A stretch of DNA of 64,000 nt from positions 231,832-295,831 of IMG/VR virus record IMGVR_UViG_3300023179_004209; one strand, 5' to 3'. Under the pieces are notes generated by a model. It saw only the letters and a list, made by a program, of their open reading frames with translations. It had not been told where the DNA came from and did no database searches. The stretch comes from a virus. Its lineage: Duplodnaviria; Heunggongvirae; Uroviricota; Caudoviricetes. Of this stretch, positions 1-61,786 are shown piece by piece (the stretch's first letter is position 1; every line of letters begins with the position of its first letter). The position numbers and the translations under genes are program-made.

Positions 1-96
1 GGCAAGTGGTATTATAGGAATGTAAATAAGACTGGTTCTACATTTGTTGAGTTGACCGCTCGTGTTTGTAAGTGTGATTGATGAAATATAAAAACA

Positions 97-267: not shown

Positions 268-324
268 TGAATCTATTGATTTGTTTGATTTTGTGGTTGG
301 AAGAGAAAAAGTTAAAAAAAGTTG

Positions 325-353
325 TTGACTTCCCCGAAGAAATCCTGTAAAGT
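325..353 (+). promoter_or_regulatory. early promoter TTGACT-N17-TAAAGT
   Basis: -35 TTGACT 325-330, -10 TAAAGT 348-353, ATG at 363; member of repeated promoter family. Confidence 0.7.
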
Positions 354-362
354 ATAACCACG

Positions 363-629
363 ATGAAGATCAAATTGCTTGTTCTGGTTTCTCTGGTTCT
401 GGTTGGTGCTGGTTGTGATGGTAACACCGCTGCTAAAAGCTTTGGTGGTACTATGACGGTTGACTTGGAGAAGAACCAGAAGTTGGTGAATGTAACTTGG
501 AAGGATGGTGATACTCTGTGGTATCTTACTCGTCCTGCTCGTAGTGGTGAAACTCCTGAAACTTATACTTTCAAGGAAAAGTCTTCACTTGGTATTCTTG
601 ATGGTCAGGTGATTTTGATTGAACATTGA
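363..629 (+). CDS. small lipoprotein (signal peptide + lipobox-like VGAGC)
   Basis: ORF starts 9 nt after -10; MKIKLLVLVSLVLVGAGC. Confidence 0.6.
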   Translation: MKIKLLVLVSLVLVGAGCDGNTAAKSFGGTMTVDLEKNQKLVNVTWKDGDTLWYLTRPARSGETPETYTFKEKSSLGILDGQVILIEH

Positions 630-645
630 TAAAATATTACCCACG

Positions 646-861
646 ATGAAACTTTACGCTTTTGTTGTTTTTGAAACTGGTGGCTCTGGCGGTCTTGGCC
701 ATTATGGTAATCTTGTTAAGACTGGTTATGTTACCAAGAGTATTCTTGCTAGTAATGCTAATAAGTTTAGAAACAAACGAGTTAAAGTGATGTGTTCTGG
801 TGGTTATGTTTGTTATCCCAAGCGTAAACAAATTACTACTATTATTCCATTTTCAGTTTAA
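646..861 (+). CDS. hypothetical small protein (start moved to 646)
   Basis: ATG preceded by TAAAATATTACCCACG resembling the family -10/leader; in frame with track ORF 619..861. Confidence 0.5.
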   Translation: MKLYAFVVFETGGSGGLGHYGNLVKTGYVTKSILASNANKFRNKRVKVMCSGGYVCYPKRKQITTIIPFSV

Positions 862-881
862 TAATTTTTTGAAAAAAGTTG

Positions 882-910
882 TTGACTTCCCAGAAGAACT
901 CCTGTAGGAT
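882..910 (+). promoter_or_regulatory. early promoter TTGACT-N17-TAGGAT
   Basis: TTGACT 882-887, TAGGAT 905-910, ATG at 920. Confidence 0.7.
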
Positions 911-919
911 ATATCCACG

Positions 920-1045
920 ATGAACGCCGTCATTATTATTGTTACTTTGACATTTTCAGTTTTGTATTATCTTTCAGAGCTTGAAAGTGAAAGCTTTCTT
1001 CGTGATGTGGAGAGTGCAAAACGTGATTTGCGTGACTCTAACTAA
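920..1045 (+). CDS. 41-aa hydrophobic peptide
   Basis: ATG directly after promoter in the same ATATCCACG-ATG context as other family members; membrane-like. Confidence 0.45.
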   Translation: MNAVIIIVTLTFSVLYYLSELESESFLRDVESAKRDLRDSN

Positions 1046-1049
1046 AAAA

Positions 1050-1220
1050 ATGAAAATTAATCGTGAAGAACTTGTTATCGGATATATCGCTACTTTGGTT
1101 GCGGGTGTTTTATTTGCGCTCGGTCCACTTGGAAATGATCTAACAAAAGAAATGGCTTTGTTCTTTTTTAAACTGAGCGTTATTCTGTTTGTTATCTTTA
1201 GGGTAACAAAAGAAAAATAA
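1050..1220 (+). CDS. 56-aa membrane peptide
   Basis: internal ATG of track ORF 981..1220 after the stop of the previous peptide; hydrophobic. Confidence 0.35.
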   Translation: MKINREELVIGYIATLVAGVLFALGPLGNDLTKEMALFFFKLSVILFVIFRVTKEK

Positions 1221-1241
1221 AAAAACTAAATTATTTCCACT

Positions 1242-1484
1242 ATGATTGAAGAACCGGAATTGTCAATGAAGCTTAAGACATACACGGTGGTGTTGCGTAT
1301 AAATACGCTTGAGGATGAAAATACTGAGGGTGACCCTATTATTAGTGAATATTTTCAAAGTGAGTTAGAGAAGAAAATTAGAGAAGAACATATGTTTACT
1401 GATCAAAAAGGTGGAGCTTTGTTTCTTATTTCTAGAAATGTTGAGAATATTACGATGGTTCGGTCAATCTCAGCTTTCAAATAA
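1242..1484 (+). CDS. hypothetical acidic small protein
   Basis: ORF; ATG preceded by TATTTCCACT. Confidence 0.5.
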   Translation: MIEEPELSMKLKTYTVVLRINTLEDENTEGDPIISEYFQSELEKKIREEHMFTDQKGGALFLISRNVENITMVRSISAFK

Positions 1485-1501
1485 TTTTTGAAAAAAGTTG
1501 T

Positions 1502-1529
1502 TGACTTTTTGAATGGGGTGGTGTAAAGT
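1502..1529 (+). promoter_or_regulatory. early promoter TTGACT-N16-TAAAGT
   Basis: ATG at 1539 after ATTTCCACG. Confidence 0.7.
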
Positions 1530-1538
1530 ATTTCCACG

Positions 1539-1721
1539 ATGAAACTGATTGATGTTGATAACGCCGAGGTTGAAGTGGAAGATAGTTGGCAAGAGGAATG
1601 TCCCCAATGTGGTGACACGAATGTTCAATGCCACTACATCCCAAACTGGGATGCAACTCGTTGTTATGACTGCCTGGTTAACGAAGCGATCAAGTTTCAT
1701 TATCGGGTTGAAGAAAAGTAA
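1539..1721 (+). CDS. zinc-ribbon-like small protein (CPQC...CYDC)
   Basis: ORF; 4 Cys in two pairs. Confidence 0.55.
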   Translation: MKLIDVDNAEVEVEDSWQEECPQCGDTNVQCHYIPNWDATRCYDCLVNEAIKFHYRVEEK

Positions 1722-1730
1722 AAAAAGCGG

Positions 1731-1759
1731 TTGACTTCCCAGAGGAAAACCTGTAAAGT
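1731..1759 (+). promoter_or_regulatory. early promoter TTGACT-N17-TAAAGT
   Basis: ATG at 1769 after ATTTCCACG. Confidence 0.7.
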
Positions 1760-1768
1760 ATTTCCACG

Positions 1769-2002
1769 ATGAAGAACATCAATAAGTATAACGAGCGTAT
1801 TACCAAGTATAACGAGCGTATTACCAAGAACTGGAACGACTATTGTGATAAGCTTGAAGACTATTGCCGCCGTCGGCAAACCAAGAACCGCATCGCTGCC
1901 ATCCGCAAGACCATCAAGTATGTCAAGACGGGTGAGGCTGACAAGGAACTGGCTCTTCTCCTCAACCACCAGACAAGTATGCCTAAAAAAAGTTCACGAT
2001 AA
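1769..2002 (+). CDS. basic small protein with tandem KYNERIT repeat, GC-rich 3' half
   Basis: ORF behind promoter. Confidence 0.55.
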   Translation: MKNINKYNERITKYNERITKNWNDYCDKLEDYCRRRQTKNRIAAIRKTIKYVKTGEADKELALLLNHQTSMPKKSSR

Positions 2003-2005
2003 GGC

Positions 2006-2034
2006 TTGACTTTCGGGTGTGGTGATGGTAAAGT
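2006..2034 (+). promoter_or_regulatory. early promoter TTGACT-N17-TAAAGT driving a non-coding transcript
   Basis: No ORF downstream; transcript would start near 2041 (CAGTTGATCG). Confidence 0.55.
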
Positions 2035-2040
2035 ATTTTC

Positions 2041-2200
2041 AGTTGATCGTTAGATTCTAAAAGAATTGAAAATCAACTTCAGCTAACTCAAAGAGTGCCA
2101 GTCTATGAACCTTCGGGTGCCGAGCATGGGGCGACTGGTAATGTGTTGAGGAAATGGGAACCGGACCTGCTGACCAAACAATCAAAACCGGACGATTTTT
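2041..2200 (+). ncRNA. putative small RNA 1 (unknown function)
   Basis: promoter without ORF; GC-rich hairpins (CCTTCGGGTGCCGAGCATGGGGCG); T-run near 2196. Confidence 0.3.
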
Positions 2201-2211
2201 AGAAAAAGTTC

Positions 2212-2240
2212 TTTACAAGTCGGATAGTTCGTGGTAAATT
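2212..2240 (+). promoter_or_regulatory. promoter TTTACA-N17-TAAATT (copy 1 of a duplicated 40-nt promoter)
   Basis: identical 35-nt core repeated at 2497-2525. Confidence 0.5.
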
Positions 2241-2256
2241 AAATAATAAATAAATT

Positions 2257-2463
2257 ATGAATACCCGTGGATTCTACAAAACTACTATTACGTTTGAAGT
2301 GCTCAGTTTGGAACCTATTCCTGATGGAATGAGTTTGGAAGCAATTTCAACCATCGGTCATCCTATGAGTAATCCAAAACTTTCCCGTCTACAGATGAGT
2401 GAACGGGAGATGCGTGAAGAGCTCATAAAGATGGGTCACAATCCTGATTTCTTCAAATCGTAA
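2257..2463 (+). CDS. hypothetical small protein
   Basis: ORF. Confidence 0.45.
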   Translation: MNTRGFYKTTITFEVLSLEPIPDGMSLEAISTIGHPMSNPKLSRLQMSEREMREELIKMGHNPDFFKS

Positions 2464-2496
2464 TAGTGTTAGTCGTCTGATAAGTAAAAAAAGTTC

Positions 2497-2525
2497 TTTA
2501 CAAGTCGGATAGTTCGTGGTAAGAT
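2497..2525 (+). promoter_or_regulatory. promoter TTTACA-N17-TAAGAT (copy 2) driving a non-coding transcript
   Basis: followed by TTTTCAGTTGATGG as in small RNA 1; no ORF for about 950 nt. Confidence 0.5.
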
Positions 2526-2531
2526 ATTTTC

Positions 2532-3470
2532 AGTTGATGGGACCGGAAGGAATACGACTGGAAACCCTGAAACTAAAAGATTGACGGCATAACAACTTGG
2601 GAGAATGTAAGTTAACTTCATATTGCCCACAATGATTAAACGATTGCAATTCCGTGGAAGCAAGGAGCAGTCCGGTTAACTTTAATTCGACCAATGTAGC
2701 CATCCGGTTTCAATCCGGAGAACCAAGAAATAGAGGGCAGTGGGTTACGATTCACTGATAAATACTTGGATGTCAATCAACAATTTGTTAGTTATAGATG
2801 GTATTATATGAGTAGACGGAGAATGATGCCGACACGATTGTCGGTAATCGAACAGTAGGGGTATAATACAGGCAGTTATATGCGGACATTGAAGCTAACA
2901 AACCAATTTTTTAAGTTCTTTTTATAATTTGATTGAATATCTGATATTAGCTTAATTAGAGCCGTCTGTTAATTCAGCGAGGTGTAGTATCCAATCTACA
3001 TATCAGTAAAAATCAAATTGGTTGATGAGGTTCTAGACCAATCCAACATCTATAAAGCAGAGAAATTTGGGACTCTGCCATCAACCAAATGTTTTTTAAC
3101 CAAGCAATAGAGTTAGCTATCTTGACAAAGAATCAAATGACTCTGATAACAGCGTTGGGTGCTAGCAGTAACAACAAAGATCCCAAACGGAAACAGATAA
3201 TACGATTTTTTGCTTGGTTAATTCAATTTTTGAATAATATATACAGGCGGTCATTCTAAACTGATCTGATCAATTAGTGGTGAATGGGAGGTTCAAATCC
3301 TCTGTATGTTATTCAATAGCAAGTAACAGATAGACTATAGGTGTAGCATTCGGGCAATGCGCCGGTAATTACAGGAGACTAGGTTCAATTCCTAGACACT
3401 TACAACTTGGAACAAACGGGCGTTCTTAATTGAATATCCGGTGAAATCCTGAAAACTTGTTATTTTTTTC
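2532..3470 (+). ncRNA. ORF-free region with multiple hairpins, terminator-like elements and T-arm-like motifs (one or more sRNAs)
   Basis: no ORF >60 aa on + strand. 10-bp inverted repeats at 3016-3025/3078-3087 and 3097-3106/3209-3218. T-arm-like GGAGGTTCAAATCCTC (about 3287-3302) and CTAGGTTCAATTCCTAG (about 3375-3391). Confidence 0.3.
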
Positions 3471-3479
3471 ACTTTCCCC

Positions 3480-3508
3480 TTGACTTTTTTCCACGGGTAA
3501 CTTAATAT
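3480..3508 (+). promoter_or_regulatory. promoter TTGACT-N17-TAATAT
   Basis: ATG at 3518. Confidence 0.6.
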
Positions 3509-3517
3509 ATTTTTACA

Positions 3518-3691
3518 ATGAAATACAAGATGTTTGTTCTCCTTGAAGGCAAAAAGAAATTGATTGCTAGCACCAATAATTTCAGTGATTTTCAAACTCT
3601 TATGACTGAATTTGAAAAGTTTGAAATTCAATGGGAAGTTACTGAAAATGGTGATACTGTGTTTTCTACCTTTGCTTCTGTTTTGAACTAA
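3518..3691 (+). CDS. 57-aa hypothetical protein
   Basis: ORF below track cutoff, directly behind promoter. Confidence 0.45.
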   Translation: MKYKMFVLLEGKKKLIASTNNFSDFQTLMTEFEKFEIQWEVTENGDTVFSTFASVLN

Positions 3692-3700
3692 TATAATAAT

Positions 3701-4078
3701 ATGAATTACGCTAACTTTTTTGAACTTAAGGGTAAGACTATCACTTCAATTCAAGGTAGTAACTCTGATGATGGTGATACTATTATCACTACCAGTGATG
3801 GTTCTAGTTATACTCTAACGCATATACAAGATTGTTGTGAACATGTTAGAGTGTATGGTACTGTTGGTAATATTGATGATGTACTGAATGTAGAAGTAAT
3901 TGCTGCTGAGGATACTAATCCTATGGATAATCCTAATGCACCTGACTATAAGGCTTATGATTCTTCTACTTGGACTCAATTCAGAATTGTAACCAACAAA
4001 GGAACTTTTGAAATTTGGTGGTTGGGTGAATCAAATGGATATTACAGTGAAACTGTTTCCGTAATTAAGAACTCATAA
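3701..4078 (+). CDS. hypothetical protein
   Basis: ORF. Confidence 0.55.
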   Translation: MNYANFFELKGKTITSIQGSNSDDGDTIITTSDGSSYTLTHIQDCCEHVRVYGTVGNIDDVLNVEVIAAEDTNPMDNPNAPDYKAYDSSTWTQFRIVTNKGTFEIWWLGESNGYYSETVSVIKNS

Positions 4079-4082
4079 TAAT

Positions 4083-4274
4083 ATGAAAACTGAATATGAT
4101 TATTTAATTCTAGATGCAATGTCACAGTACGGTGGTAGTTTTGTAAAGCAATTGTCTAACCTTGCTAGGGTTGCGGATGCTACAAACTTTGCAAAGCTCA
4201 AGGTTACCTTTGCAAACTATTGGGAAGAATATGACCGTTTTCTTCCTGAATCTAACCAGAAACAGACGGTTTAA
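4083..4274 (+). CDS. hypothetical small protein
   Basis: ORF. Confidence 0.45.
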   Translation: MKTEYDYLILDAMSQYGGSFVKQLSNLARVADATNFAKLKVTFANYWEEYDRFLPESNQKQTV

Positions 4275-4286
4275 ACCGTGCCAGAA

Positions 4287-4318
4287 CCGCCCAGGATCCC
4301 TTATGGGCGGTTTTGTTT
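4287..4318 (+). terminator. Rho-independent terminator CCGCCCAGG..TGGGCGG + TTTT
   Basis: GC stem 4287-4293/4304-4310 and T-run. Confidence 0.65.
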
Positions 4319-4380
4319 GTCTGGCCAGGTGTCCAGATGGTTCCCACAAACCATGACCAAAAAAAAGTTTAAAAAAAGTT

Positions 4381-4409
4381 TTGACGGAACCATTGGCGGC
4401 TAGTATCTT
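4381..4409 (+). promoter_or_regulatory. promoter TTGACG-N17-TATCTT
   Basis: ATG at 4416. Confidence 0.5.
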
Positions 4410-4415
4410 CTTTCC

Positions 4416-4718
4416 ATGGTTAATGACTCTGTTCCCTTTGTTCCCACCCGTGATGACCTGATCAGCTACATCTCTGACACCTACAAGGAGATCAACGGTT
4501 TCCGTCCCCGGCCTGTTTGGTCTGAGTTGACCTACGAGCAGCTGGACAAGTGGGGTCGTGAGTTGGCGGCTGAGGTGGTCACCTACCGTAAGCAAGAGGT
4601 TGTCCGTAACCGTATTGCCCGTGGTCTCCGCCGTGCTCAGCAACGGGCTTGGGTTGAGAAGAAACGCAGTTACTTCACTGGTTCCACTTTCACCATTGGA
4701 AATGTTGTTAACTTCTAA
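4416..4718 (+). CDS. hypothetical protein encoded by an anomalously GC-rich (about 52%) gene
   Basis: ORF; composition contrasts with the 35% GC surroundings. Confidence 0.55.
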   Translation: MVNDSVPFVPTRDDLISYISDTYKEINGFRPRPVWSELTYEQLDKWGRELAAEVVTYRKQEVVRNRIARGLRRAQQRAWVEKKRSYFTGSTFTIGNVVNF

Positions 4719-4726
4719 AAAAGTTG

Positions 4727-4755
4727 TTGACATTGGTTTGGTCATATACTAATAT
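4727..4755 (+). promoter_or_regulatory. promoter TTGACA-N17-TAATAT
   Basis: ATG at 4767. Confidence 0.55.
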
Positions 4756-4766
4756 TTAAAAACAAT

Positions 4767-5129: not shown

Positions 5130-5135
5130 AAATTT

Positions 5136-5654: not shown

Positions 5655-5658
5655 TAAT

Positions 5659-6134: not shown

Positions 6135-6140
6135 GTTTTT

Positions 6141-7048: not shown

Positions 7049-7053
7049 AACAT

Positions 7054-13819: not shown

Positions 13820-13848
13820 TTGACTTCTGCGGAGGATTGGTGTAGGAT
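13820..13848 (+). promoter_or_regulatory. promoter TTGACT-N17-TAGGAT
   Basis: ATG at 13858 after ATATCCAAG. Confidence 0.65.
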
Positions 13849-13857
13849 ATATCCAAG

Positions 13858-13944
13858 ATGAATATTGAATTCCTAGCGGAAAATGCGGCGATGTTGGGAA
13901 TGATTCTGGGGATTGTTCTCATTTTGTGGATTGAAAATATTTAA
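13858..13944 (+). CDS. 28-aa hydrophobic peptide
   Basis: ATG in canonical position behind promoter. Confidence 0.3.
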   Translation: MNIEFLAENAAMLGMILGIVLILWIENI

Positions 13945-14722: not shown

Positions 14723-14983
14723 ATGACGCAGCAATTTAAAACATATACCAATAGTATTACCACTTTAATTGACGCAAACAATTATATACAACAAAAATAC
14801 GGAACTAATGCAATGTTAGAAGAAGTTGTTGTTGATGGTAAAACTAAATATCAATTTTGTAATATCCCCTCCGTCAAAAATTATCCCCATAAATTAAAAA
14901 ATGTTACATCTGCAATGAATGTATTGTTTGCGCATGAAAGAGGTTGGATTGCTTATAACAAAAATCTCAAAAATTCCAATTGA
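14723..14983 (+). CDS. hypothetical protein
   Basis: ORF; stop lies in the next -35. Confidence 0.5.
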   Translation: MTQQFKTYTNSITTLIDANNYIQQKYGTNAMLEEVVVDGKTKYQFCNIPSVKNYPHKLKNVTSAMNVLFAHERGWIAYNKNLKNSN

Positions 14984-15008
14984 CTTTCTATAAATTTGGT
15001 GGTAAACT
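14980..15008 (+). promoter_or_regulatory. promoter TTGACT-N17-TAAACT
   Basis: family member, repeated at 15211 and 15458. Confidence 0.6.
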
Positions 15009-15031
15009 TAAAAAGTAAAGTAAGTTAAACT

Positions 15032-15214
15032 ATGAACAATTGTAGAGTAATTTTGTTGCTTTTTGGTGGAGTTTATGTTCGTGTGGAATTCGGACCAAAA
15101 GATTTTGAAATTCAAGCGTTCAAAGAATTTCAAGACAAAGAAGAACAATTGTTCTTTTATCAGTGTGTATTGAACTATCTCAATGCCGAATGGATTAGTC
15201 TAAAAAGTTGTTGA
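15032..15214 (+). CDS. hypothetical small protein
   Basis: ORF; stop codon is the TGA inside the next TTGACT. Confidence 0.45.
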   Translation: MNNCRVILLLFGGVYVRVEFGPKDFEIQAFKEFQDKEEQLFFYQCVLNYLNAEWISLKSC

Positions 15215-15239
15215 CTTCTTATAAAGTGTGTGGTAAACT
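15211..15239 (+). promoter_or_regulatory. promoter TTGACT-N17-TAAACT
   Basis: near-identical to 14980 and 15458 copies. Confidence 0.6.
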
Positions 15240-15457: not shown

Positions 15458-15486
15458 TTGACTTGTTATAAAGTGTGTGGTAAAGT
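15458..15486 (+). promoter_or_regulatory. promoter TTGACT-N17-TAAAGT
   Basis: family member. Confidence 0.6.
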
Positions 15487-15492
15487 AGAGTT

Positions 15493-15624
15493 ATGTTAAA
15501 ATTCAAACTTACATTAATTTCAGGCTTGGTTGTTGAACATTTTTCAGATACTATGATTCAAGCAATTAAGTATGTGGAACATAGATTTGAAACAAGTGTG
15601 GTAAAAGCTGAAAAGGTAAACTAA
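15493..15624 (+). CDS. 43-aa hypothetical peptide
   Basis: first ATG after promoter, below track cutoff. Confidence 0.25.
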   Translation: MLKFKLTLISGLVVEHFSDTMIQAIKYVEHRFETSVVKAEKVN

Positions 15625-18878: not shown

Positions 18879-19061
18879 ATGAATCTACCAACTAAACAAC
18901 CAGATGTAATTGAACTAACCAAGTCAATCAGAGAAATACACTATCAACTACAATTAGACTACCAAGCTCTAATGTTGAAAGCCACTACTCTACAAGCAGA
19001 AAATGAAGAACTAAAAGAAAGATTGGCTAAAATTGCAGAGAAAATCCAACTTGACATCTAA
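18879..19061 (+). CDS. coiled-coil small protein, N-terminus MNLPTKQP
   Basis: ORF. Confidence 0.45.
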   Translation: MNLPTKQPDVIELTKSIREIHYQLQLDYQALMLKATTLQAENEELKERLAKIAEKIQLDI

Positions 19062-19084
19062 AAAAGTTGTGGTATATTCATAAT

Positions 19085-19327
19085 ATGAAATTATATTCCA
19101 AAAAGAATAAAGAAGATCTATTTGATAGATTTGACATTGATATCCATTTTCCAATATTCAAATGGGGAACAAATTCAGGAAATGAATGGGTAAACGATTT
19201 TCCAACTAAATACATTGATATCAAATTTGATACACAATTAGTCTATAGAAAAGATGTTACCTGGACTTATTTTGAATTGTTGTTTTTAGGATTTGGCTTT
19301 ACTATCACTAAACAAAATAGTTACTAA
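19085..19327 (+). CDS. hypothetical protein
   Basis: internal ATG. Confidence 0.45.
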   Translation: MKLYSKKNKEDLFDRFDIDIHFPIFKWGTNSGNEWVNDFPTKYIDIKFDTQLVYRKDVTWTYFELLFLGFGFTITKQNSY

Positions 19328-20232: not shown

Positions 20233-20679
20233 ATGAGAGACTTCATTTACAGAATTTGGGACATCAAACAAAAGAAGTATACTATGACCGCTTCACTATA
20301 TGGATGTGAAGGTCTTAGTCATCTTACTCAATGCTTTAACCGCAATGAATCTATCATTGAACAATACACTGGTTTACATGATAGTAAAGGTAACAGAATC
20401 TTTGAGGGAGATATTTTATACTTTGTTGGTAGATATATTTACACAGAACCAGTAGAAGTTATCTATTATGGATCTTCATATGGATGTATAACACATGATG
20501 AACGTGGTGTTCTAAAAGAATATACAGAACTAAATCACATAGTTCAACAATATCATCCAGAAGTTATTGGTAATAGACATCAACTGCCTTGTAAACCAGA
20601 CCACAACGGCGAGTGTATCCATTGCGACTGCTGGTTGTCCGATTGTCCACTTTTGAAAAAAAGTTCCGAAAGCCATTGA
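20233..20679 (+). CDS. YopX-like phage protein (paralog 3) with Cys-rich tail
   Basis: YTGLHDSKGNRIFEGDILYF. Confidence 0.45.
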   Translation: MRDFIYRIWDIKQKKYTMTASLYGCEGLSHLTQCFNRNESIIEQYTGLHDSKGNRIFEGDILYFVGRYIYTEPVEVIYYGSSYGCITHDERGVLKEYTELNHIVQQYHPEVIGNRHQLPCKPDHNGECIHCDCWLSDCPLLKKSSESH

Positions 20680-20704
20680 CTTTTTAGAAAAAGTCTGCGA
20701 TACT
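20676..20704 (+). promoter_or_regulatory. promoter TTGACT-N17-GATACT
   Basis: ATG at 20714; -35 overlaps the previous stop codon. Confidence 0.5.
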
Positions 20705-20713
20705 CTTATCAAG

Positions 20714-20899
20714 ATGAAACACGAAGGTAAGACGATTGAACCGAGGGATATCGTTAAGGCCAACGCTGAAATCTATCGTAACAACGAGTTGATTCGGATG
20801 GAAAAAGAAAACTACAATCGTTGGCTTGCTGTCCATACTGATGAAAAGACCAAGAAAAATCATCCCGACAAAAATGACTTTTTTAATTATGAAAACTGA
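20714..20899 (+). CDS. hypothetical small protein
   Basis: ORF. Confidence 0.45.
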   Translation: MKHEGKTIEPRDIVKANAEIYRNNELIRMEKENYNRWLAVHTDEKTKKNHPDKNDFFNYEN

Positions 20900-21071
20900 T
20901 GAATTTGTTCCGTTCAAGGTTTCAGAAAATATTGACAATTCAACCCCATTCATTGCTCTGAGTGATACTTATCCAAACGACAAGTTTGAACTTTGGACCA
21001 AGGAAAATTGGGAAGAAATGAAAGAAAAAAATTCTGAAAAAAGCGTTGACAGTTTCAAGTCTCTCTGGTAA
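20889..21071 (+). CDS. hypothetical small protein
   Basis: internal ATG; stop inside next promoter spacer. Confidence 0.4.
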   Translation: MKTDEFVPFKVSENIDNSTPFIALSDTYPNDKFELWTKENWEEMKEKNSEKSVDSFKSLW

Positions 21072-21074
21072 AGT
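21046..21074 (+). promoter_or_regulatory. promoter TTGACA-N17-TAAAGT
   Basis: family member; about 45-nt leader. Confidence 0.6.
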
Positions 21075-21677: not shown

Positions 21678-21706
21678 TTGACTCTACCCCCACCTTCCCC
21701 TATACT
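21678..21706 (+). promoter_or_regulatory. promoter TTGACT-N17-TATACT
   Basis: ATG at 21716 after CTGTTCCTACG. Confidence 0.6.
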
Positions 21707-21715
21707 GTTCCTACG

Positions 21716-23092
21716 ATGAATTTGAACTTTGAAGGTCTCCTTGAACCGCAGAAAAATCACTGCCTCAACCTCCTCTCCAGTCTCTTCACCAACGGATTTG
21801 CATTCGATGCAAGTCCCACTGGCACCGGCAAAACCTACTGTGCGTCATGGGTCGCCAAGAACTACGGTGCTTCCGTTGTAGTTCTCTGTCCCAAGAGTGT
21901 TCAAAAGAACTGGTTTGACACTCTCAAGAGCTTTGGTGTAGATAATCCTATCGTTATGACTTTTGAACGATTGGTTCGTGGTAATACTGAGTATTACAGT
22001 TTCAATATGAGTGATTATCTTAATCGTAAGACTATTTGGAAGTCTGAAGGTATTGAAGTTAACTTCCCCAAGAATAGTCTGGTTATTCTGGATGAAGTAC
22101 ATAAGTGTAAAGGTAAAAAGAGTCTTGCCGGTGAATGTCTTATTGCACTTAAGAATGCTGGATACAAGTTGTTGATGCTTAGTGCCAGTGCTGCTACCAA
22201 TGTTACTGAAATGAAGGCATTTGGTTATGCCACTCTTCTTCATAATGGTTATGGATATTTTGATTTCTGTAAGGATAACGGTGTTGATTTCAACCGTTTT
22301 GGTGCAATGAGTTGGGATGCAGATGCTCGTAAGTGTAAGGATGGTATGCTTCGTATCCATAACACTCTGTATAACACTGTTAATTGTGCCAGCCGAATGA
22401 ATCGTAAGGATTTTGGTGATATCTTCCCAGATAACCAAGTTATTGCCGATTCTTTTGATCTTGGTTCCAATACTTCTAAGTTGAAGTCTGTTTATGCCGA
22501 AATGGAATATGAGTTGATGAATTTGGAGGAGGATTCCAAGGAATATAGTGAACACGTTTTCGCTATTATTATGAAAGCTCGTCGTAATAGTGAAATTCTC
22601 AAGGTTCCTTCTATGGTCAACTGGATTATTGATATGTACCGTGAGGGTATTAGTCCTGTCGTGTTTGTTAATTTCACTGAAACTTTGGAAGCTATTGAAA
22701 AGCGTCTCATTGAATCTGGTGAGTTTACTGGTAAGATCAGTAAGATTGTTGGTGGTCAGTCTCCTAAGACTCGTAATAATGAGATTGAAAACTTCCAGAA
22801 GGATATTACCCGTGTTTGTTTGGTGATGATTCCCGCTGGTGCTGCTAGTGTTAGTCTTCATGACTTGAATGGTAATTATCCCCGTCATACACTGATTAAT
22901 CCTAGTTACAGTGCTATTAACACTCTTCAATCACTTGGTCGTTGTCATCGTGTTAATGGTAAGACTCCGGTGATTCAACGATTCTTCTTTGCTGAAGGTG
23001 TTGAAATTGAACAAAAGATGCGTCAACGAGTTAGTTTGCGTCTGACCAATCTGGATTGTTTGAATGATGGTGATTTTGCTATTAACAATTAA
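21716..23092 (+). CDS. SF2 DExH-box helicase
   Basis: motif I SPTGTGKT, II ILDEVHK, III SASAAT, VI QSLGRCHR. Confidence 0.75.
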   Translation: MNLNFEGLLEPQKNHCLNLLSSLFTNGFAFDASPTGTGKTYCASWVAKNYGASVVVLCPKSVQKNWFDTLKSFGVDNPIVMTFERLVRGNTEYYSFNMSDYLNRKTIWKSEGIEVNFPKNSLVILDEVHKCKGKKSLAGECLIALKNAGYKLLMLSASAATNVTEMKAFGYATLLHNGYGYFDFCKDNGVDFNRFGAMSWDADARKCKDGMLRIHNTLYNTVNCASRMNRKDFGDIFPDNQVIADSFDLGSNTSKLKSVYAEMEYELMNLEEDSKEYSEHVFAIIMKARRNSEILKVPSMVNWIIDMYREGISPVVFVNFTETLEAIEKRLIESGEFTGKISKIVGGQSPKTRNNEIENFQKDITRVCLVMIPAGAASVSLHDLNGNYPRHTLINPSYSAINTLQSLGRCHRVNGKTPVIQRFFFAEGVEIEQKMRQRVSLRLTNLDCLNDGDFAINN

Positions 23093-45232: not shown

Positions 45233-45266
45233 TTGACAAAATTAACCGTCAAACTATCATAACCAT

Positions 45267-45470
45267 ATGAAAATCAAAATGTTAAAAAATATTGATGTAG
45301 ACATTGACAAAACCAAACTCCAAGAAGTTTGGCCAAAATATCTCCACCGCAATGATGTTTTTAATGTTGACAAAATTGAAACCATCTGCGAAGATAAAGT
45401 CAATCTGGTACTAGACAACGGAGATGTCCTACTTGAAGTACCAAACAAGTCATTCACTCCAGTTTTTTAA
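45267..45470 (+). CDS. hypothetical small protein
   Basis: ORF. Confidence 0.45.
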   Translation: MKIKMLKNIDVDIDKTKLQEVWPKYLHRNDVFNVDKIETICEDKVNLVLDNGDVLLEVPNKSFTPVF

Positions 45471-53037: not shown

Positions 53038-53546
53038 ATTATACACCTCCAGATTGGAACGAATGGTTTTTGCAAGGAGTTTATTGGGTTGCAAGTAAAT
53101 CCAAAGATCCCAAAACTAAGATTGGTGCTCTTATTGTAAAAGATAAACGAATCATTTCAACAGGATACAATGGTATTCCTATTGGAGTAGATGATAAAAA
53201 TGAATTACGACATGAAAGACCAGAAAAATACAAATGGTATGAACACGGTGAACGCAATGCGATTTATGCTGCTGCTAAATATGGCATTGATACAAACGGA
53301 TCGATATTATACACCAATGCTTTGCCATGTGCTGATTGTGCTAGGGGTATAATTCAAAGTGGTATCAAATGTGTTTATATACACCAACAATTCAATGATT
53401 TGTGTAATTCAACACAAAGAGAACAATGGAAAGGACATGACAATGCTACTTTCACAATGTTCAATGAATCTGGAATAGAAATTCATACAATTGATAGAAT
53501 TTTGGGATGTAAAGCATATTTTGACGGAAAAGTGTTTGACATTTAA
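53028..53546 (+). CDS. dCMP deaminase (cytidine/deoxycytidylate deaminase family)
   Basis: HGERNA and PCADCA zinc-binding motifs. Confidence 0.75.
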   Translation: MGLNYTPPDWNEWFLQGVYWVASKSKDPKTKIGALIVKDKRIISTGYNGIPIGVDDKNELRHERPEKYKWYEHGERNAIYAAAKYGIDTNGSILYTNALPCADCARGIIQSGIKCVYIHQQFNDLCNSTQREQWKGHDNATFTMFNESGIEIHTIDRILGCKAYFDGKVFDI

Positions 53547-53569
53547 AAAAAGTGTGATAGTCTGTTCAT

Positions 53570-53782
53570 ATGATCAACAATAACGAACTGTTCGCTAAGG
53601 TACTGGCTGAAAATCCTCTTCCTTATCGTTTTGGCGACAAGGTAAACACTAACCGTGGTATTGGTTATATCAGTGGTTATAATTTCAAGGACCGTGAAAA
53701 GACTTGGAAGTTTACTATTCGTCCTTATGGATTGCCTAATTATTATATTGATGTTGAAACCGTATATGGAAAGGTAGACTAA
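53570..53782 (+). CDS. hypothetical small protein
   Basis: ORF. Confidence 0.45.
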   Translation: MINNNELFAKVLAENPLPYRFGDKVNTNRGIGYISGYNFKDREKTWKFTIRPYGLPNYYIDVETVYGKVD

Positions 53783-54367: not shown

Positions 54368-54523
54368 ATGGAATTTAGGGGTAAACAGCGTCAATTAAAT
54401 GATAGAACAGTGATTGAAACGTACAATCCTGCAACTAATCAGACATTTTTCTATAGCTTTGATGAAGACTTTTTTTGGTTTCCCGGTCAAATTCCAGACT
54501 ACAAACTTCCAAAAGTGTCTTGA
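54368..54523 (+). CDS. hypothetical small protein
   Basis: internal ATG. Confidence 0.35.
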   Translation: MEFRGKQRQLNDRTVIETYNPATNQTFFYSFDEDFFWFPGQIPDYKLPKVS

Positions 54524-54548
54524 CTTGTTATAAAGTGTGTGGTAATCT
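54520..54548 (+). promoter_or_regulatory. promoter TTGACT-N17-TAATCT
   Basis: CTTGACTTGTTATAAAGTGTGTGGTAA identical core to 15458 promoter. Confidence 0.6.
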
Positions 54549-54554
54549 AGACTT

Positions 54555-55076
54555 ATGAATGAACAAACCTATATGAAGCTTGGTGATGTCGTGAAACGTC
54601 CTGTTTTTGATGTAAAAAACATCAACCGTGAAAATCCTCGTTTCAAACATCTGGTGGATAGTTACCAGAAGTGGAATAGTGATAATGATATTGATGAACC
54701 TCGTTCAACATATGAAAATGATATTATTGAATGTCTTGGTCAATATGATTTGGATGGATTTGCACTTGCTCAACATTTGAAGGACTATGTGTATGTTGAG
54801 CCTGATAGTGAACTTGTCCATATTCTGGATGATGTTCTTTTTGTCAAGAGTTCACTTGAACGAGAAATGTTGAGTCAATGGGTTAAGGAAAACTTCTTGA
54901 CCATTCCAGATGATGTAGTTGGTAAGAAGGTTAATGCAAAACAAGGTTTTCGTAAGTATGAGAATCACTACATTACTGGAATTAAGCCAGAAACTTATCA
55001 AGTAACTGTTAGTGATAATCCTAAGAAATACGGTGGTTATATTGTTGGGTTTGAAAATGTAACTTTTGTTGACTAA
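54555..55076 (+). CDS. hypothetical protein
   Basis: ORF behind promoter. Confidence 0.55.
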   Translation: MNEQTYMKLGDVVKRPVFDVKNINRENPRFKHLVDSYQKWNSDNDIDEPRSTYENDIIECLGQYDLDGFALAQHLKDYVYVEPDSELVHILDDVLFVKSSLEREMLSQWVKENFLTIPDDVVGKKVNAKQGFRKYENHYITGIKPETYQVTVSDNPKKYGGYIVGFENVTFVD

Positions 55077-55303: not shown

Positions 55304-55642
55304 ATGAACGTTAAGGATACATCCATAATTCCCAATGGAGATTATTGTTATACTTGGATTGAAGTTCCAAGTGAAAGTAACAACTATCGTGGTAAGGTAA
55401 AACAATGTCCTTATTATGATTGTAAGAACATCAATGGTGTAGAATTTCCTTGGTGTAATTATTTAGAATTGGGTGGCACTCCCGGTGATAAAAAATGGAA
55501 GGGTTGGGAAGATCATAACAAAGCAGATGAAGTTCTTACAGAACACTTTGGAAGCAAAGAAAAAATGGAAGAAAAACTGCCTTTGTTTCTACTATTTGAT
55601 AGTTGCAAAGAATGTGGCGTAAATGCTGAAGATGAACCTTGA
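55304..55642 (+). CDS. Cys-rich hypothetical protein
   Basis: internal ATG. Confidence 0.45.
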   Translation: MNVKDTSIIPNGDYCYTWIEVPSESNNYRGKVKQCPYYDCKNINGVEFPWCNYLELGGTPGDKKWKGWEDHNKADEVLTEHFGSKEKMEEKLPLFLLFDSCKECGVNAEDEP

Positions 55643-55666
55643 CTTTCTTTAAAGTCATGGTAAATT
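55639..55666 (+). promoter_or_regulatory. promoter TTGACT-N16-TAAATT
   Basis: ATG at 55673. Confidence 0.55.
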
Positions 55667-55672
55667 GATTGT

Positions 55673-56764
55673 ATGAAGATTGACATTCAAAAGGTTGACC
55701 TCACCCAATTTATGGTGCATGAACATTCACTTAATGGTGAAATTGTCCAGTTGATTCAGCCCCAACATATTGGCACTAAATGGCATCAAGACAACAAGCA
55801 TATGCGTAGTGTAATTGTGAATTATGCAGGTGAAGTTATCAGTGCAGGTTTTCCTAAGTTTACCAACTGGGGTGAGAATCCTGATCACTTTCCTGTTCCT
55901 AATTCATTGAAGCATTGCACCGTTGTTGAAAAGCTTGATGGTTCATTGTTGATTGTTAGTAAGTATAATGGTCAATATATTCTACGTACCCGTGGAACTG
56001 TTGATGCTTCTACTATGGCTAATGGTCATGAACTTGAAATTTTCAAGAACACTATTTTATCCAAGTTGGCTGATAACAATGATACTTGGGATTATTCAGT
56101 GCTTTTTGAGTGGTTGTCTCCTATCAACAAGATTGTTTTGAACTACGGTGATGAACCTTCTTGGAGATTGATTGGGTTTATTAACCACATCAACTATTCA
56201 CTTGCACAACAAGATATGTTGGACGCTATGGCTAAGAAGTATGGATTTGATCGTCCTCCTACCTATACTTTTTCTGATGTTCAAGATCTGTTAAAGGATG
56301 TTGACCAATGGAGAGGTAAGGAAGGTGTAGTTGTTTATTCAAAGAATGACCAAATGCTTCACAAGGTAAAGGGTGCTTGGTATCTTGCTCTACATCATAT
56401 GAAGAGCGAGTTGTCAAACATTGAGAAGGTTATAGATGTATGGTTGGAACAGAGTATGCCTGACTATCAGACTTTCTATAGTTATATCTTTACCACCTTT
56501 GATTACGAATTGGCTGAACAGTGCCGTGGTATGATTAGCCGTATTTGTGATGCTAAGAAGGAAGTGGATATGATTGTGGTTGGTATGAATGAATTTGTGA
56601 ATAACAGACTCAAGACTCTACCTACTCGTAAGTTACAGGCTGAACAAGTAATTTCAGCTTATGGTAATACTAATAGAGCTTCATTTTTGTTCAAGTTGCT
56701 TGATGGTAAGTCGTTAGGCAAAGAAGAATATAAGAAGTTACTATTTCAAGTATTGAAAAACTAA
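55673..56764 (+). CDS. ATP-dependent RNA ligase, T4 Rnl1-like
   Basis: motif I EKLDGSLL (KxDGS as in T4 RnlA KEDGSL); later EGVVVYSK and HKVKGAWY. Confidence 0.6.
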   Translation: MKIDIQKVDLTQFMVHEHSLNGEIVQLIQPQHIGTKWHQDNKHMRSVIVNYAGEVISAGFPKFTNWGENPDHFPVPNSLKHCTVVEKLDGSLLIVSKYNGQYILRTRGTVDASTMANGHELEIFKNTILSKLADNNDTWDYSVLFEWLSPINKIVLNYGDEPSWRLIGFINHINYSLAQQDMLDAMAKKYGFDRPPTYTFSDVQDLLKDVDQWRGKEGVVVYSKNDQMLHKVKGAWYLALHHMKSELSNIEKVIDVWLEQSMPDYQTFYSYIFTTFDYELAEQCRGMISRICDAKKEVDMIVVGMNEFVNNRLKTLPTRKLQAEQVISAYGNTNRASFLFKLLDGKSLGKEEYKKLLFQVLKN

Positions 56765-60005: not shown

Positions 60006-60140
60006 ATATTTTCCTTTCGTTTAGTAACCACCATAGATTACACTCTATACATAACATATTACATACCCATAACAAACATCTTTTACACCTCCTTTACAAT
60101 TTTCTATTGACTTTATAACAACTTATGTTACAGTAACAAC

Positions 60141-60596
60141 ATGAGTACAATTTATATCGCCGTTGGATTGCCTGGAAGCGGTAAATCCACATACGCAAAG
60201 AACTTTATTAAAGGAAAAGACATTGAATACCTAAGTAGTGATGAATTACGAGCTGTATTTGGTAAAAGTGAAGAAGATCAAACGGTGACTCCACTTGTTT
60301 TTGGTCACATCAAAAGAAAGGTTGACGAATTTCTAAAAGATGGTAAAAATGTATTGGTTGATGCAACCAGTGTAAACCGTAGAGAACGATCTGATTACAT
60401 CAACACCGCAAAGAAATATGGCGCAAAAGTAATTGCTCTTGTTTTCAAGATGGATCGTGCTGGTTTGATTACACGAAATCAAAAGAGAGGTCAAGAAGGT
60501 GGCAGAGTTGTACCTGATTGGGTTATTGATAAGATGTTAACAAAGTATGAAGAACCTTCTACCAGTGAAGGTATTGATGAAATAATTTATGTTTGA
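60141..60596 (+). CDS. P-loop polynucleotide 5'-kinase (Pnkp kinase-domain-like)
   Basis: Walker A GLPGSGKST; size and context with phosphoesterase and RNA ligase. Confidence 0.6.
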   Translation: MSTIYIAVGLPGSGKSTYAKNFIKGKDIEYLSSDELRAVFGKSEEDQTVTPLVFGHIKRKVDEFLKDGKNVLVDATSVNRRERSDYINTAKKYGAKVIALVFKMDRAGLITRNQKRGQEGGRVVPDWVIDKMLTKYEEPSTSEGIDEIIYV

Positions 60597-61270: not shown

Positions 61271-61272
61271 GT

Positions 61273-61300
61273 TGACTTTCTATAAAACCCGTGGTAGATT
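61273..61300 (+). promoter_or_regulatory. promoter TTGACT-N16-TAGATT
   Basis: TTGACTTTCTATAAAACCCGTGGTAGATT; ATG 61310. Confidence 0.6.
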
Positions 61301-61309
61301 GAGTTCGTT

Positions 61310-61786
61310 ATGTCAAAACCATACATTCACGCTCAAAGTTCCGTCCGTAAATTCGGCGGTAAACCAGAAGATTATGAACCCATACACGCTTTTATGGATT
61401 GTAGTAAGGGTGCAATTGCGGATAACCGACATCGTGCTCTAACACACAATAGTTGGTTTCTTAGTAATATTCTGGAACGAGTAAAATTTGCCAATAGTGG
61501 ACCAGAAACCAGTGATCATCGTTTTCCTACCATTATCAATAGTGATGGACGTAGTGTGAGTGTACGGGACATTGGTGAACAACATTGTTTGGAAGACTTT
61601 GCTAATAAGTTTATTCCTTCAGCACAAGATTATCTGGCTGAAATGGAGTTCAAGAGTTGGATGCAGAATGGCATTTCACATCCTCCTAGCTTTGTCAAGA
61701 TTGATGAAGGTCGTAAATCCCGTGCTAAAAATGGTTTGACTTCTAAAACTTTCGGTGGTAGTATCAAAAATGTAATTGGAGATTAA
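61310..61786 (+). CDS. hypothetical protein
   Basis: ORF behind promoter. Confidence 0.55.
   Translation: MSKPYIHAQSSVRKFGGKPEDYEPIHAFMDCSKGAIADNRHRALTHNSWFLSNILERVKFANSGPETSDHRFPTIINSDGRSVSVRDIGEQHCLEDFANKFIPSAQDYLAEMEFKSWMQNGISHPPSFVKIDEGRKSRAKNGLTSKTFGGSIKNVIGD

Follow-up and report, generated by a model that had tools for sequence, protein, structure and literature searches.

The DNA analysed here is a 64-kb window (33% G+C) of the IMG/VR virus record IMGVR_UViG_3300023179_004209, in which the + strand carries nearly all genes. Promoters of the sigma-70 type recur across this window and repeatedly place an ATG start codon at one of two fixed distances, 6 or 9 nucleotides (nt), past their -10 hexamer. 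As judged by motif counts, Shine-Dalgarno (SD) motifs are essentially absent genome-wide. From the sequence we estimate a probability of about 0.75 that gene expression in this phage is built on 5′-end-dependent, SD-free translation from these promoter-ATG fusions, and the phage mRNAs would probably have little or no leader. The arrangement is broader than a first-pass annotation of the window had held, with at least three promoter classes spread across its whole length.

The promoter family is strongly enriched, although the count of at least 20 copies first reported for TTGACT-N16/17-TA(A/G)(A/G)GT was too high, as this exact motif occurs only 7 times in the window against 0.16 expected. Relaxing the -10 to TAnnnT gives 23 TTGACT-N16/17 copies against 3.0 expected, 22 of them on the + strand. 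The family TTGAC-N17-19-TAnnnT yields 41 matches, 39 on the + strand and 2 on the - strand, against 14.3 expected over both strands, and the spacers of the 39 + strand matches are 16-18 bp long, mostly 17. The consensus of 35 non-redundant copies with a 17-bp spacer reads aaaattttnaAAAAAgctg-TTGACTT-(spacer)-tGTAnnnT-AT(t)tcCACg-ATG-AAn. The module thus runs from distal and proximal A/T tracts at the position of an UP element through a consensus -35, a 17-bp spacer, TAnnnT and a conserved 9-nt stretch to the ATG, and the second codon is AAN in 56 of 63 copies. In the 9-nt class, AAAATTTTnAAAAAAGCTG forms a UP-like A/T tract immediately 5′ of the -35, and an extended -10 (TGnTAnnnT) is found in many promoters of the 6-nt class and of non-coding RNAs (ncRNAs). 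Four copies within 308-1778 make up a 65-nt direct-repeat family with 69-85% identity. Hexamers at a spacing of 17 +/- 1 bp, orientation along the gene strand, enrichment over chance, and UP and TG elements were all found, which supports the assignment of these repeats as predicted strong sigma-70-type promoters of full anatomy, almost exclusively on the coding strand. Two other parsings were rejected. Shifted -10 hexamers in the 9-nt class (e.g. AGTATT or GATATA), which would give a 6-nt spacing, violate A-11/T-7 and require spacers of 20-21 bp, and a Bacteroidota-type promoter (TAnnTTTG with a -33 TTTG) does not fit the conserved positions.

Within the window, the first ATG that opens an open reading frame (ORF) of at least 30 amino acids (aa) shows a bimodal spacing from the -10, lying at 6 nt in 8 of the 39 + strand promoters and at 9 nt in 7 of the 39. 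The chance rate of such an ATG at one given offset is about 0.7% of positions. The promoters that had been described as abutting ATGs at 363, 920, 1539, 1769 and 13858 each consist of a -10, 9 nt and the ATG, and two of the five 9-mers differ from the sequences originally quoted for them; they read ATAACCACG (363), ATATCCACG (920), ATTTCCACG (1539 and 1769) and ATATCCAAG (13858). Further 9-nt cases precede the ATGs at 3518, 20714 (-10 GATACT), 21716 and 61310. The seven counted cases are those at 363, 920, 1539, 1769, 3518, 21716 and 61310, with 13858 left outside the count for its 28-aa ORF and 20714 for its -10. The second class, with the ATG 6 nt past the -10, had been missed and comprises 4416, 15493, 19085, 45267, 53570, 54555, 55673 and 60141. 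The 9-nt class, with the consensus AT(T/A)TCC-A-C-(G/A)-ATG-AAn, dominates positions 325-4760, where almost every small ORF has its own promoter copy, and the 6-nt class dominates later in the window.

The spacing is retained in related loci. An initial IMG/VR scan used a pattern that included the 9-nt feature and so shows only that the module exists elsewhere, though the loci it returned hold many further, unselected copies. Two later sets were fetched with probes lacking any promoter-ATG feature. A 21-nt piece of a tRNA-like RNA retrieved 32 metagenome loci (193 kb), in which 221 unique promoters lie on the gene strand and 19 on the other; the ATG stands at 9 nt in 130 of the 221 and at 6 nt in 14. 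The RNA-ligase protein retrieved 63 IMG/VR loci (342 kb), which carry 154 gene-strand promoters and 16 of opposite orientation, and here the ATG stands at 6 nt in 71 of the 154, at 7 nt in 13, at 8 nt in 8 and at 9 nt in 12. Two further loci found with a 19-nt ncRNA probe, L011 and L013, were chance matches within unrelated coding sequence and were dropped. At the RNA-ligase gene itself, 24 of 39 distinct relatives share the arrangement of -10, 6 nt and ATG, even at protein identities as low as about 58-62%, where -35 flank, spacer, -10 variant and 6-mer have all changed. Examples of such diverged promoters are TTGACA-N17-TAAGGT-tctcca-ATG and TTGACA-N17-TACAAT-tcttca-ATG. Spacing that outlasts the turnover of the sequence around it is a signature of selection on geometry.

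Several lines of evidence support the ORFs behind the promoter-abutting ATGs as real coding genes. At +9, 135 of 138 ATGs lead into complete ORFs (median length 70 aa), and 99% are at least 30 aa long, compared with 32% for all ATGs. In 37 gap-free homologous pairs, codon positions 1, 2 and 3 differ 230, 165 and 554 times, respectively, so that substitutions concentrate at the third position. In the window, the promoter-abutting ATGs are the first possible starts past an in-frame stop. The N-terminus of ORF 363-629 can be fixed at its promoter-abutting ATG because a signal peptide and lipobox begin there and homologues occur in cultured phages, namely a 'putative membrane lipoprotein' of Bacillus and Brevibacillus myophages that shares 50-61% identity. 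In addition, homologues of ORF 1539-1721 stand behind the same promoter module in five related loci.

Conventional signals for ribosome binding are scarce around these starts. GGAG, GAGG or AGGA occurs at -18 to -4 in only 11 of 117 crude gene starts, against a background of 6.3%, and no GGAG-like core is present in the 6 or 9 nt between the -10 and the ATG. Over all window genes, G makes up 6-10% at -9 to -4, T stands at -1 in 74% and A at +4 in 73%; the 9-nt promoter class deviates from this context in having G or A at -1. Among about 120 gene calls, 20 abut a sigma-70-like promoter, 14 abut the motif nATATTTATA, 50 start no more than 15 nt past the preceding stop and 36 show none of these arrangements. 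The motif nATATTTATA sits 3-7 nt (mode 5) before the ATG of 14 mostly larger genes between 21400 and 59300, usually directly behind a GGGGTTTTTT terminator, and resembles a promoter of late or middle type that likewise abuts start codons. In the relatives, the ATATTTATA class has an ATG 3-6 nt downstream in 20 of 29 unique copies. A leadered class is also present, in which the -10 is followed by 6 nt and a conserved GTAA(A/T)TAAA..., with SD-free, A/U-rich leaders of 10-35 nt.

The likely transcription start can be placed from the conserved positions. At position 6 past the -10, 80% of 9-nt-class copies carry C and 88% of 6-nt-class copies a pyrimidine, with G absent there from the latter class; at position 7, A stands in 89% and 100% of the two classes, respectively. 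Polymerases of the E. coli type most often start 7 nt past the -10, with a pyrimidine at -1 and a purine at +1. Position 7 is also where conserved sequence sets in behind the ncRNA promoters (AGTTGA...) and in the leadered class (GTAAAT...), and two copies with a 9-nt-type discriminator read TTTCC|ATG, with the ATG at position 7. The pyrimidine-A pattern, the modal start geometry and the onset of conserved sequence at position 7 together indicate predicted 5′ ends of 5′-AUG for the 6-nt class and 5′-AC(G/A)AUGAA for the 9-nt class. The proposal of leaderless or near-leaderless mRNAs starting on or within 1-3 nt of the ATG thus agrees with the predicted leaders of 0 nt and 3 nt. If a leaderless mRNA is defined by a +1 on the A of the ATG, with the -10 6-7 bp upstream, the 6-nt class (8 window genes) would be leaderless and the 9-nt class, whose ATG lies at predicted +4, would not. 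By these predictions the 9-nt class is near-leaderless at best, with a fixed 3-nt mini-leader of conserved sequence.

These features suggest how the system may operate. Host RNA polymerase with the primary sigma factor would fire at each module and begin transcription at the conserved A at position 7. In the 6-nt class this A would be the A of the AUG, giving a truly leaderless mRNA, and in the 9-nt class the mRNA would begin with 5′-AC(G/A)AUGAA. Ribosomes would then load at or beside the 5′ end without SD pairing, and downstream cistrons, lying no more than 15 nt past the preceding stop, could be reached by termination-reinitiation. A module carrying ATTTTC-A(G)GTTGA in place of the ATG would serve as an ncRNA promoter. 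If only the 5′-proximal ATG is served, every independently expressed small gene needs a promoter of its own, hence the dense array. With one promoter per small gene, upstream ORFs would run into the next promoter and place their stops within its -35 or -10 hexamer. The sequence analysis itself establishes the anatomy, strand bias, fixed spacing and conservation of the motifs, the coding status of their ORFs, the lack of SD motifs, the RNA covariation and the mosaic breakpoints, whereas we infer host polymerase use, the exact start, the early timing and the mode of ribosome loading.

Some considerations weigh against this interpretation. All 5′ ends given here are predictions from E. coli-type rules, and promoter recognition and efficient leaderless translation in the host cannot be asserted. 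Given 14.3 matches expected over both strands, about 7 of the 39 + strand matches may be due to chance, and 13 of the first IMG/VR copies were picked by a pattern containing the 9-nt feature, the later sets being free of such selection. Folding at the predicted 5′ ends is weak (-2.5 and -2.8 kcal/mol over the first 40 nt, against -4.6 kcal/mol for random windows matched in G+C), which agrees with the model but, being common to gene starts in general, does not distinguish it from others. Additional 5′ nucleotides ahead of the AUG lower leaderless translation in E. coli, so that a conserved 3-nt leader is not obviously optimal and the start of the 9-nt class could lie further downstream. Transcription from position 9 or 10 would leave a leader of 0-1 nt and make this class truly leaderless, with CCAC acting as a discriminator or start-selection element comparable to that of E. 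coli rrnB P1. The discriminator AT(T/A)TCC is indeed G-poor and pyrimidine-rich, a second pyrimidine-purine step (C8-R9) lies immediately before the ATG, downstream start sites are known for G-poor discriminators, and leaderless initiation in the bacteria studied favours a true 5′-AUG. We nevertheless regard a start at position 9 or 10 as unlikely: A7 and the C before it form the modal start geometry, the 6-nt, ncRNA and GTAAAT-leader classes have conserved sequence from position 7 onward, and the two variants of the 9-nt-type module put the ATG itself at position 7.

Because no terminators separate the cassettes in 325-2000, read-through transcripts with internal ATGs must exist and might be translated. 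The promoters could therefore fire while the ORFs are translated mainly as internal cistrons, through A/U-rich or S1-type loading or reinitiation independent of SD motifs, and the spacing would be a by-product of packing. The internal genes of the window, which also lack SD motifs and must be translated somehow, and the existence of the class with short A/U-rich leaders fit this idea. It appears rather improbable all the same, since packing would not fix the distance at precisely 6 or 9 nt across hundreds of copies that have diverged, or preserve the pyrimidine-A step at positions 6 and 7, the unrelated promoter-like motif nATATTTATA abuts ATGs likewise, and the CCACG before 9-nt-class ATGs is not A/U-rich and departs from the T at -1 of internal starts. 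Recognition by a phage-encoded or phage-modified polymerase with another start geometry, instead of the host primary sigma factor, has in its favour that nATATTTATA departs clearly from the sigma-70 consensus and probably needs a phage factor and that the window is only part of the phage genome. We consider it improbable for the sigma-70-like classes, in which all elements match the primary-sigma consensus down to the 17-bp spacer and upstream A/T tracts; moreover, the window proteins that were scanned include no polymerase or sigma factor. The least probable explanation, and in our view a very remote one, is that the 55-65-nt modules are primarily recombination or cassette-boundary sequences like those of T4-type phages, their promoter look being secondary. 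Homology does break at modules and the window copies are similar over 65 nt, but the conserved positions are exactly those with promoter function, the spacers vary, the 6-nt-class copies are dissimilar outside the hexamers while keeping their geometry, and the strand bias follows gene direction. Recombination and promoter roles are also not mutually exclusive.

The promoter array is tightly packed. Upstream ORFs had been reported to end inside the next promoter, and TGA stops are indeed embedded in TTGACT at 14981-14983, 15212-15214 and 20677-20679, while the TAA at 21069-21071, previously placed in a spacer, lies in the -10. The promoters at 325, 882, 1501 and 1731 have no terminator-like hairpin 5′ of them, only A/T tracts, and upstream ORFs in 325-2000 extend across the A-tract into the promoter that follows, their stops falling within -35 or -10 hexamers. 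When window positions 1-5200 are compared with the related loci L021, L040, L008 and L018, blocks of homology end at promoter modules, and cassettes have been gained, lost and reordered. In L021, window 1232-1484 follows directly on 48-246, and in L040 window 1769-2463 is missing. The promoter P6 (2200-2237) is a 97% duplicate of P7 (2485-2522), with a 68-aa ORF (2257-2463) inserted between them that is missing from relatives such as L008. The near-identical promoter modules may thus double as homology patches for the gain and loss of cassettes.

Two promoter copies have no ORF behind them, at 2006 and 2497 as originally noted, but only the former has a TTGACT box, the latter reading TTTACA. 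Both continue with ATTTTC-AGTTGAT, and the suggestion that they produce non-coding RNAs is supported by comparison, as both head predicted RNAs that are conserved in nucleotide sequence and covary. ncRNA 1 would be about 160 nt long (2041-2200), starting with AGUUGAU and forming a 5′ hairpin AGUUGAU/AUCAACU. Five loci retain its 3′ module (2072-2200), and among 5 sequences compensatory changes affect 5 of the 23 pairs predicted. Because the single-sequence fold is no better than shuffles (z = -0.74), the structure rests on comparative evidence only. The array behind P7 (2532-3410) spans about 880 nt without a conserved ORF, and its modules are 82-98% identical in relatives, yet present, absent or reordered. 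The 5′ module (2530-2586) is 98% conserved, segment 2587-2700 is found only in the window and in L017 and L035, and P7 lies between 135 and 1662 nt from the terminal units, depending on the relative.

The terminal units of this array are tRNA-like. Across 21 distinct sequences of the two units, 96.6% of cells pair, and two-sided changes occur in 11 pairs compared with 4.8 in shuffles, none of 500 shuffles reaching 11. When the partners are slid, pairing falls to 29-52%, and RNAalifold independently recovers the same helices; in unit 2, both the acceptor and T stems carry compensatory changes. ARAGORN calls no tRNA in 2000-3500, including 3232-3402. Rfam searches at the gathering threshold (window and 7 loci) and at E<=1 (1900-3600) returned only the tRNAs at 45.5-49 kb and one chance match to a long non-coding RNA; the tRNA model did not call either unit, and 1900-3600 as a whole corresponds to no Rfam family. 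The units have acceptor and T stems without a canonical D arm or anticodon loop, and are thus not canonical tRNAs, while a true tRNA-Asp lies within the same array in three relatives. By comparative sequence criteria, the ncRNAs behind P7 form a tRNA-like operon. A separate promoter-driven, ORF-less family occurs in the relatives (L001:4281, L003:1106, L005:11386, L019:8457 and L037:7334), beginning ...AGATCGGCTGA(A/C)AAAGC(C/T)AGGGT(A/G)GGGG..., and seems, judged by eye, to represent one more conserved small RNA.

The window comes from a large, uncultivated freshwater phage that belongs to a widespread lineage. No near match to it was found among 50,697 deposited phage genomes when window 1-8000 was compared with INPHARED by megablast. 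tblastn of the ankyrin protein, RNA ligase and helicase revealed no cultured relative and returned only remote matches at 25-30% identity, to Wolbachia WO, to phages of Streptomyces and to Rhodothermus phage RM378, with RM378 the best match for the helicase at 25%. Relatives are plentiful, both in IMG/VR and in freshwater and estuarine metagenomes from JGI; their contigs reach 304 kb, and one of them, B570J14230, was obtained from Lake Mendota. It is this abundance together with the lack of a near deposited match that places the window in an uncultivated large-phage lineage. Clues to the host are few. A scan of GTDB genomes with the promoter-ATG pattern gave one match, a 1.4-kb contig of an unclassified metagenome-assembled genome from Lake Lanier, and comparison of the TnpB protein with plasmids gave only matches at about 25% identity, spread over many phyla, with no host clue. 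The lack of SD motifs argues against a Firmicute host, despite the likeness of the lipoprotein to Bacillus and Brevibacillus phage proteins.

The strategy proposed here is known from a few phages and bacteria, and it is unusually systematic in this lineage. The closest precedent is phiYS40 of Thermus thermophilus, a large AT-rich lytic phage in which most middle and late mRNAs are leaderless and translated by the host apparatus, with a shift in the balance of IF2 and IF3 (PMC3594737). Both phages have promoters directly ahead of start codons. In phiYS40, however, leaderless transcripts belong to the middle and late classes, in a host phylum that relies heavily on such mRNAs, whereas here the arrangement involves sigma-70-like classes that have a full -35 and UP element, alongside a separate ATATTTATA class, and the dominant class of 325-4760 has a fixed 9-nt spacing that does not place the AUG at +1. 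No protein or DNA relationship to phiYS40 was detected in the INPHARED search, in which the best helicase match was to RM378. Many ORFs of Deinococcus-Thermus and Actinobacteria have TAnnnT 6-7 bp upstream and no or a very short 5′ untranslated region (PMC12340547, PMC4007540, PMC3160421). The 6-nt class has exactly this geometry and, by sequence criteria, is a straightforward member of the leaderless kind; the 9-nt class, whose CCAC(G/A) before the ATG has no counterpart in these descriptions, would be a variant. Those bacteria differ in carrying GGAG sites on their leadered genes, of which this phage has essentially none. Early transcripts of phiKZ and transcripts of AR9, by contrast, have ordinary or long leaders (PMC8244752, PMC5312081).

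Several other phage systems share parts of this arrangement. The PeSLs (promoter-early stem-loops) of T4-type phages are composites of a terminator and a promoter, and the T4-type genes behind them have ordinary SD leaders. PeSL cassettes and ORFan regions consist of arrays of small ORFs without known function, each behind a near-identical early sigma-70-type promoter, and these repeats mark the breakpoints of indels and replacements (PMC2839356, PMC4122927). The promoter repeats of the window likewise lie at indel and replacement breakpoints between relatives, but they abut the ATG and lack a composite stem-loop terminator in 325-2000; the ATATTTATA class, unlike the promoters of 325-2000, does follow GGGGTTTTTT terminators. 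The promoter-driven array of structured RNAs, with acceptor-like and T-arm helices and content that varies between relatives, resembles the tRNA clusters of large phages with their small stable RNAs (T4 species 1 and 2), from which it differs in that the two conserved units have no canonical D arm and anticodon loop. The lambda cI mRNA from PRM reportedly starts at the A of its AUG and depends on that 5′-terminal AUG for translation, a result that PMC12340547 credits to Shean and Gottesman (1992). This and other single leaderless phage genes are, however, isolated regulatory genes in otherwise SD-using genomes, while here the arrangement is the rule for first cistrons. We found no description in the literature of this phage lineage or of the promoter-ATG arrangement, and literature on leaderless cyanophage or freshwater phage transcripts yielded only reference-list mentions.

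If the predicted 5′ ends are right, this lineage offers a sequence-rich natural system for leaderless and near-leaderless translation, with hundreds of diverged fusions at two sharp spacings, and would be the second independent virus built on leaderless translation after phiYS40. Gene callers that expect a ribosome-binding site will misplace starts and overlook small ORFs in such genomes, and the promoter-ATG signature may be useful for annotating transcription units and narrowing the host range of uncultivated phages. The layout of one promoter per ORF would also give a mechanistic reason for dense promoter arrays and promoter-mediated shuffling in phage early regions, and the conserved tRNA-like RNAs represent an unexplored class of phage non-coding RNA. 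It is tempting to speculate, as a tentative and rather doubtful extension, that the lineage has abandoned SD initiation altogether and runs all of its temporal programmes on 5′-end-dependent initiation and reinitiation, with a bare 5′-AUG and 5′-AC(G/A)AUGAA as separate signals, and that the same promoters express tRNA-like RNAs acting on host tRNA, RNA-repair or defence machinery. The phage could then play the two 5′ ends off against each other, for example by shutting off first-wave small proteins through the balance of initiation factors.

Table 1. Coordinates of promoters, ORFs and RNA units in the 64-kb window.
Feature	Position	Strand	Details
P1, 9-nt class	308..362	+	A-tract 308-324, -35 TTGACT 325-330, -10 TAAAGT 348-353, ATAACCACG; predicted +1 A360, 3 nt before ATG
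88-aa ORF	363..629	+	signal peptide and lipobox MKIKLLVLVSLVLVGAGC from promoter-abutting ATG; phrog_12728, E=8.6e-28
Extended -10 only, TGaTAAAAT 627-635	627..861	+	overlaps stop TGA 627-629; ATTACCCACG (10 nt), ATG 646; 71-aa ORF 646-861
P2, 9-nt class	865..1220	+	-35 882-887, -10 TAGGAT 905-910, ATATCCACG
ORFs behind P2	920-1045 (41 aa, hydrophobic), 1050-1220 (56 aa)	+	second starts 4 nt past stop of first
-10-like TAAATT 1227-1232	1227..1484	+	ATTTCCACT, ATG 1242, 80-aa ORF; good -35 absent
P3, 9-nt class	1484..1721	+	-35 1501-1506, -10 1524-1529, ATTTCCACG; ORF 1539-1721, 60 aa, CxxC...CxxC
P4, 9-nt class	1714..2002	+	-35 1731-1736, -10 1754-1759, ATTTCCACG; ORF 1769-2002, 77 aa
P5 and ncRNA 1	1989..2200	+	-35 2006-2011, -10 TAAAGT 2029-2034, ATTTTC, predicted +1 A2041
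P6	2200..2463	+	TTTACA 2212-2217, TAAATT 2235-2240; 16-nt A/U leader; ORF 2257-2463, 68 aa
P7 and ncRNA array	2485..3410	+	TTTACA 2497-2502, TAAGAT 2520-2525, ATTTTC, predicted +1 A2532
tRNA-like unit 1	3232..3314	+	long acceptor-like stem, one long arm, T arm GGAGG-TTCAAAT-CCTCT
tRNA-like unit 2	3338..3402	+	7-bp acceptor stem TAGGTGT/ACACTTA, hairpin GCAT-TCGGGCA-ATGC, variable hairpin, T arm CTAGG-TTCAATT-CCTAG
P8, 9-nt class	3463..4318	+	-35 3480-3485, -10 TAATAT 3503-3508, ATTTTTACA
Operon behind P8	ORFs 3518-3691, 3701-4078, 4083-4274	+	gaps of 9 and 4 nt, no SD
Terminator closing P8 operon	4287-4318	+	hairpin CCGCCCA/TGGGCGG and T-run
P9, 6-nt class	4364..4718	+	TTGACG 4381-4386, TATCTT 4404-4409, CTTTCC, ATG 4416; 100-aa ORF
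P10	4710..5129	+	TTGACA 4727-4732, TAATAT 4750-4755; ATG 4767 11 nt past -10, predicted leader ~5 nt; 120-aa ORF
9-nt-class promoter	13820..13944	+	ATATCCAAG; 28-aa hydrophobic ORF from 13858
Two promoters (14980, 15211)	14980..15239	+	TTGACT boxes hold TGA of upstream ORFs; short GTAAA... A/U-rich leaders
6-nt-class promoter	15458..15624	+	TAAAGT, AGAGTT, ATG 15493; 43-aa ORF
6-nt-class promoter	19051..19327	+	TATATT, CATAAT, ATG 19085; 80-aa ORF
Promoter TTGACT 20676-20681	20676..20899	+	holds stop 20677-20679 of ORF 20233-20679; -10 GATACT, CTTATCAAG, ATG 20714 (61 aa)
Promoter, -10 TAAAGT 21069-21074	21046..21074	+	-10 begins with stop TAA of ORF 20841-21071
9-nt-type promoter	21678..23092	+	TATACT, GTTCCTACG, ATG 21716; DEAD/ResIII helicase, 458 aa
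6-nt-class promoter	45233..45470	+	TATCAT, AACCAT, ATG 45267; 67-aa ORF
6-nt-class promoter	53536..53782	+	TAGTCT, GTTCAT, ATG 53570; 70-aa ORF
6-nt-class promoter	54520..55076	+	TGGTAATCT, AGACTT, ATG 54555; 173-aa ORF
6-nt-class promoter	55639..56764	+	TGGTAAATT, GATTGT, ATG 55673; Rnl1-type RNA ligase
6-nt-class promoter	60107..60596	+	TACAGT, AACAAC, ATG 60141; AAA_33 kinase, 151 aa
Promoter, ATG 9 nt past -10	61272..61786	+	TAGATT, GAGTTCGTT, ATG 61310; DUF6915 protein
nATATTTATA examples	26014, 27460, 30764, 32420, 35368, 36779, 39573, 51766, 57149, 59246		
Leadered-class promoters	7520, 14980, 15211, 45824, 48321, 63768		many copies also in L001-L045

The window encodes functions typical of large phages, including an Rnl1-type RNA ligase, a LigT-type ligase, a PNK-like kinase and a dCMP deaminase, as well as HD and Macro proteins, a DEAD/ResIII helicase, two cyclase-domain proteins and an ankyrin-repeat protein. 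A set for RNA repair or modification comprises the LigT-type 2′-5′ ligase (39016-39537), the Rnl1-type RNA ligase (55673-56764), the AAA_33/PNK-like kinase (60141-60596) and adjacent HD and Macro domain proteins (6485-7512). Together with the tRNA-like RNAs, this gene set suggests a theme of tRNA damage and repair. A tRNA cluster with an HNH gene inside it occupies 45.5-49 kb of the window. Some tRNA calls are of unusual length, 87-109 nt (47166-47350, 48898-49109 and 47661-48350), among them two 'Ile(TAT)' calls of 92-93 nt and one Rfam-only tRNA of 109 nt; insertions, introns or miscalls are possible explanations. Class III adenylate/guanylate cyclase domains are present in two proteins (24216-25991 and 41568-43007), one of them fused to ankyrin repeats, and amidoligase-like and PRTase-like proteins (26026-29874) adjoin a cyclase-domain protein. 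The gene for the TnpB/IS605 OrfB-type RNA-guided nuclease, with Cas12f1-like TNB and OrfB_IS605 domains, lies on the - strand (10045-11211) in surroundings that are on the + strand.

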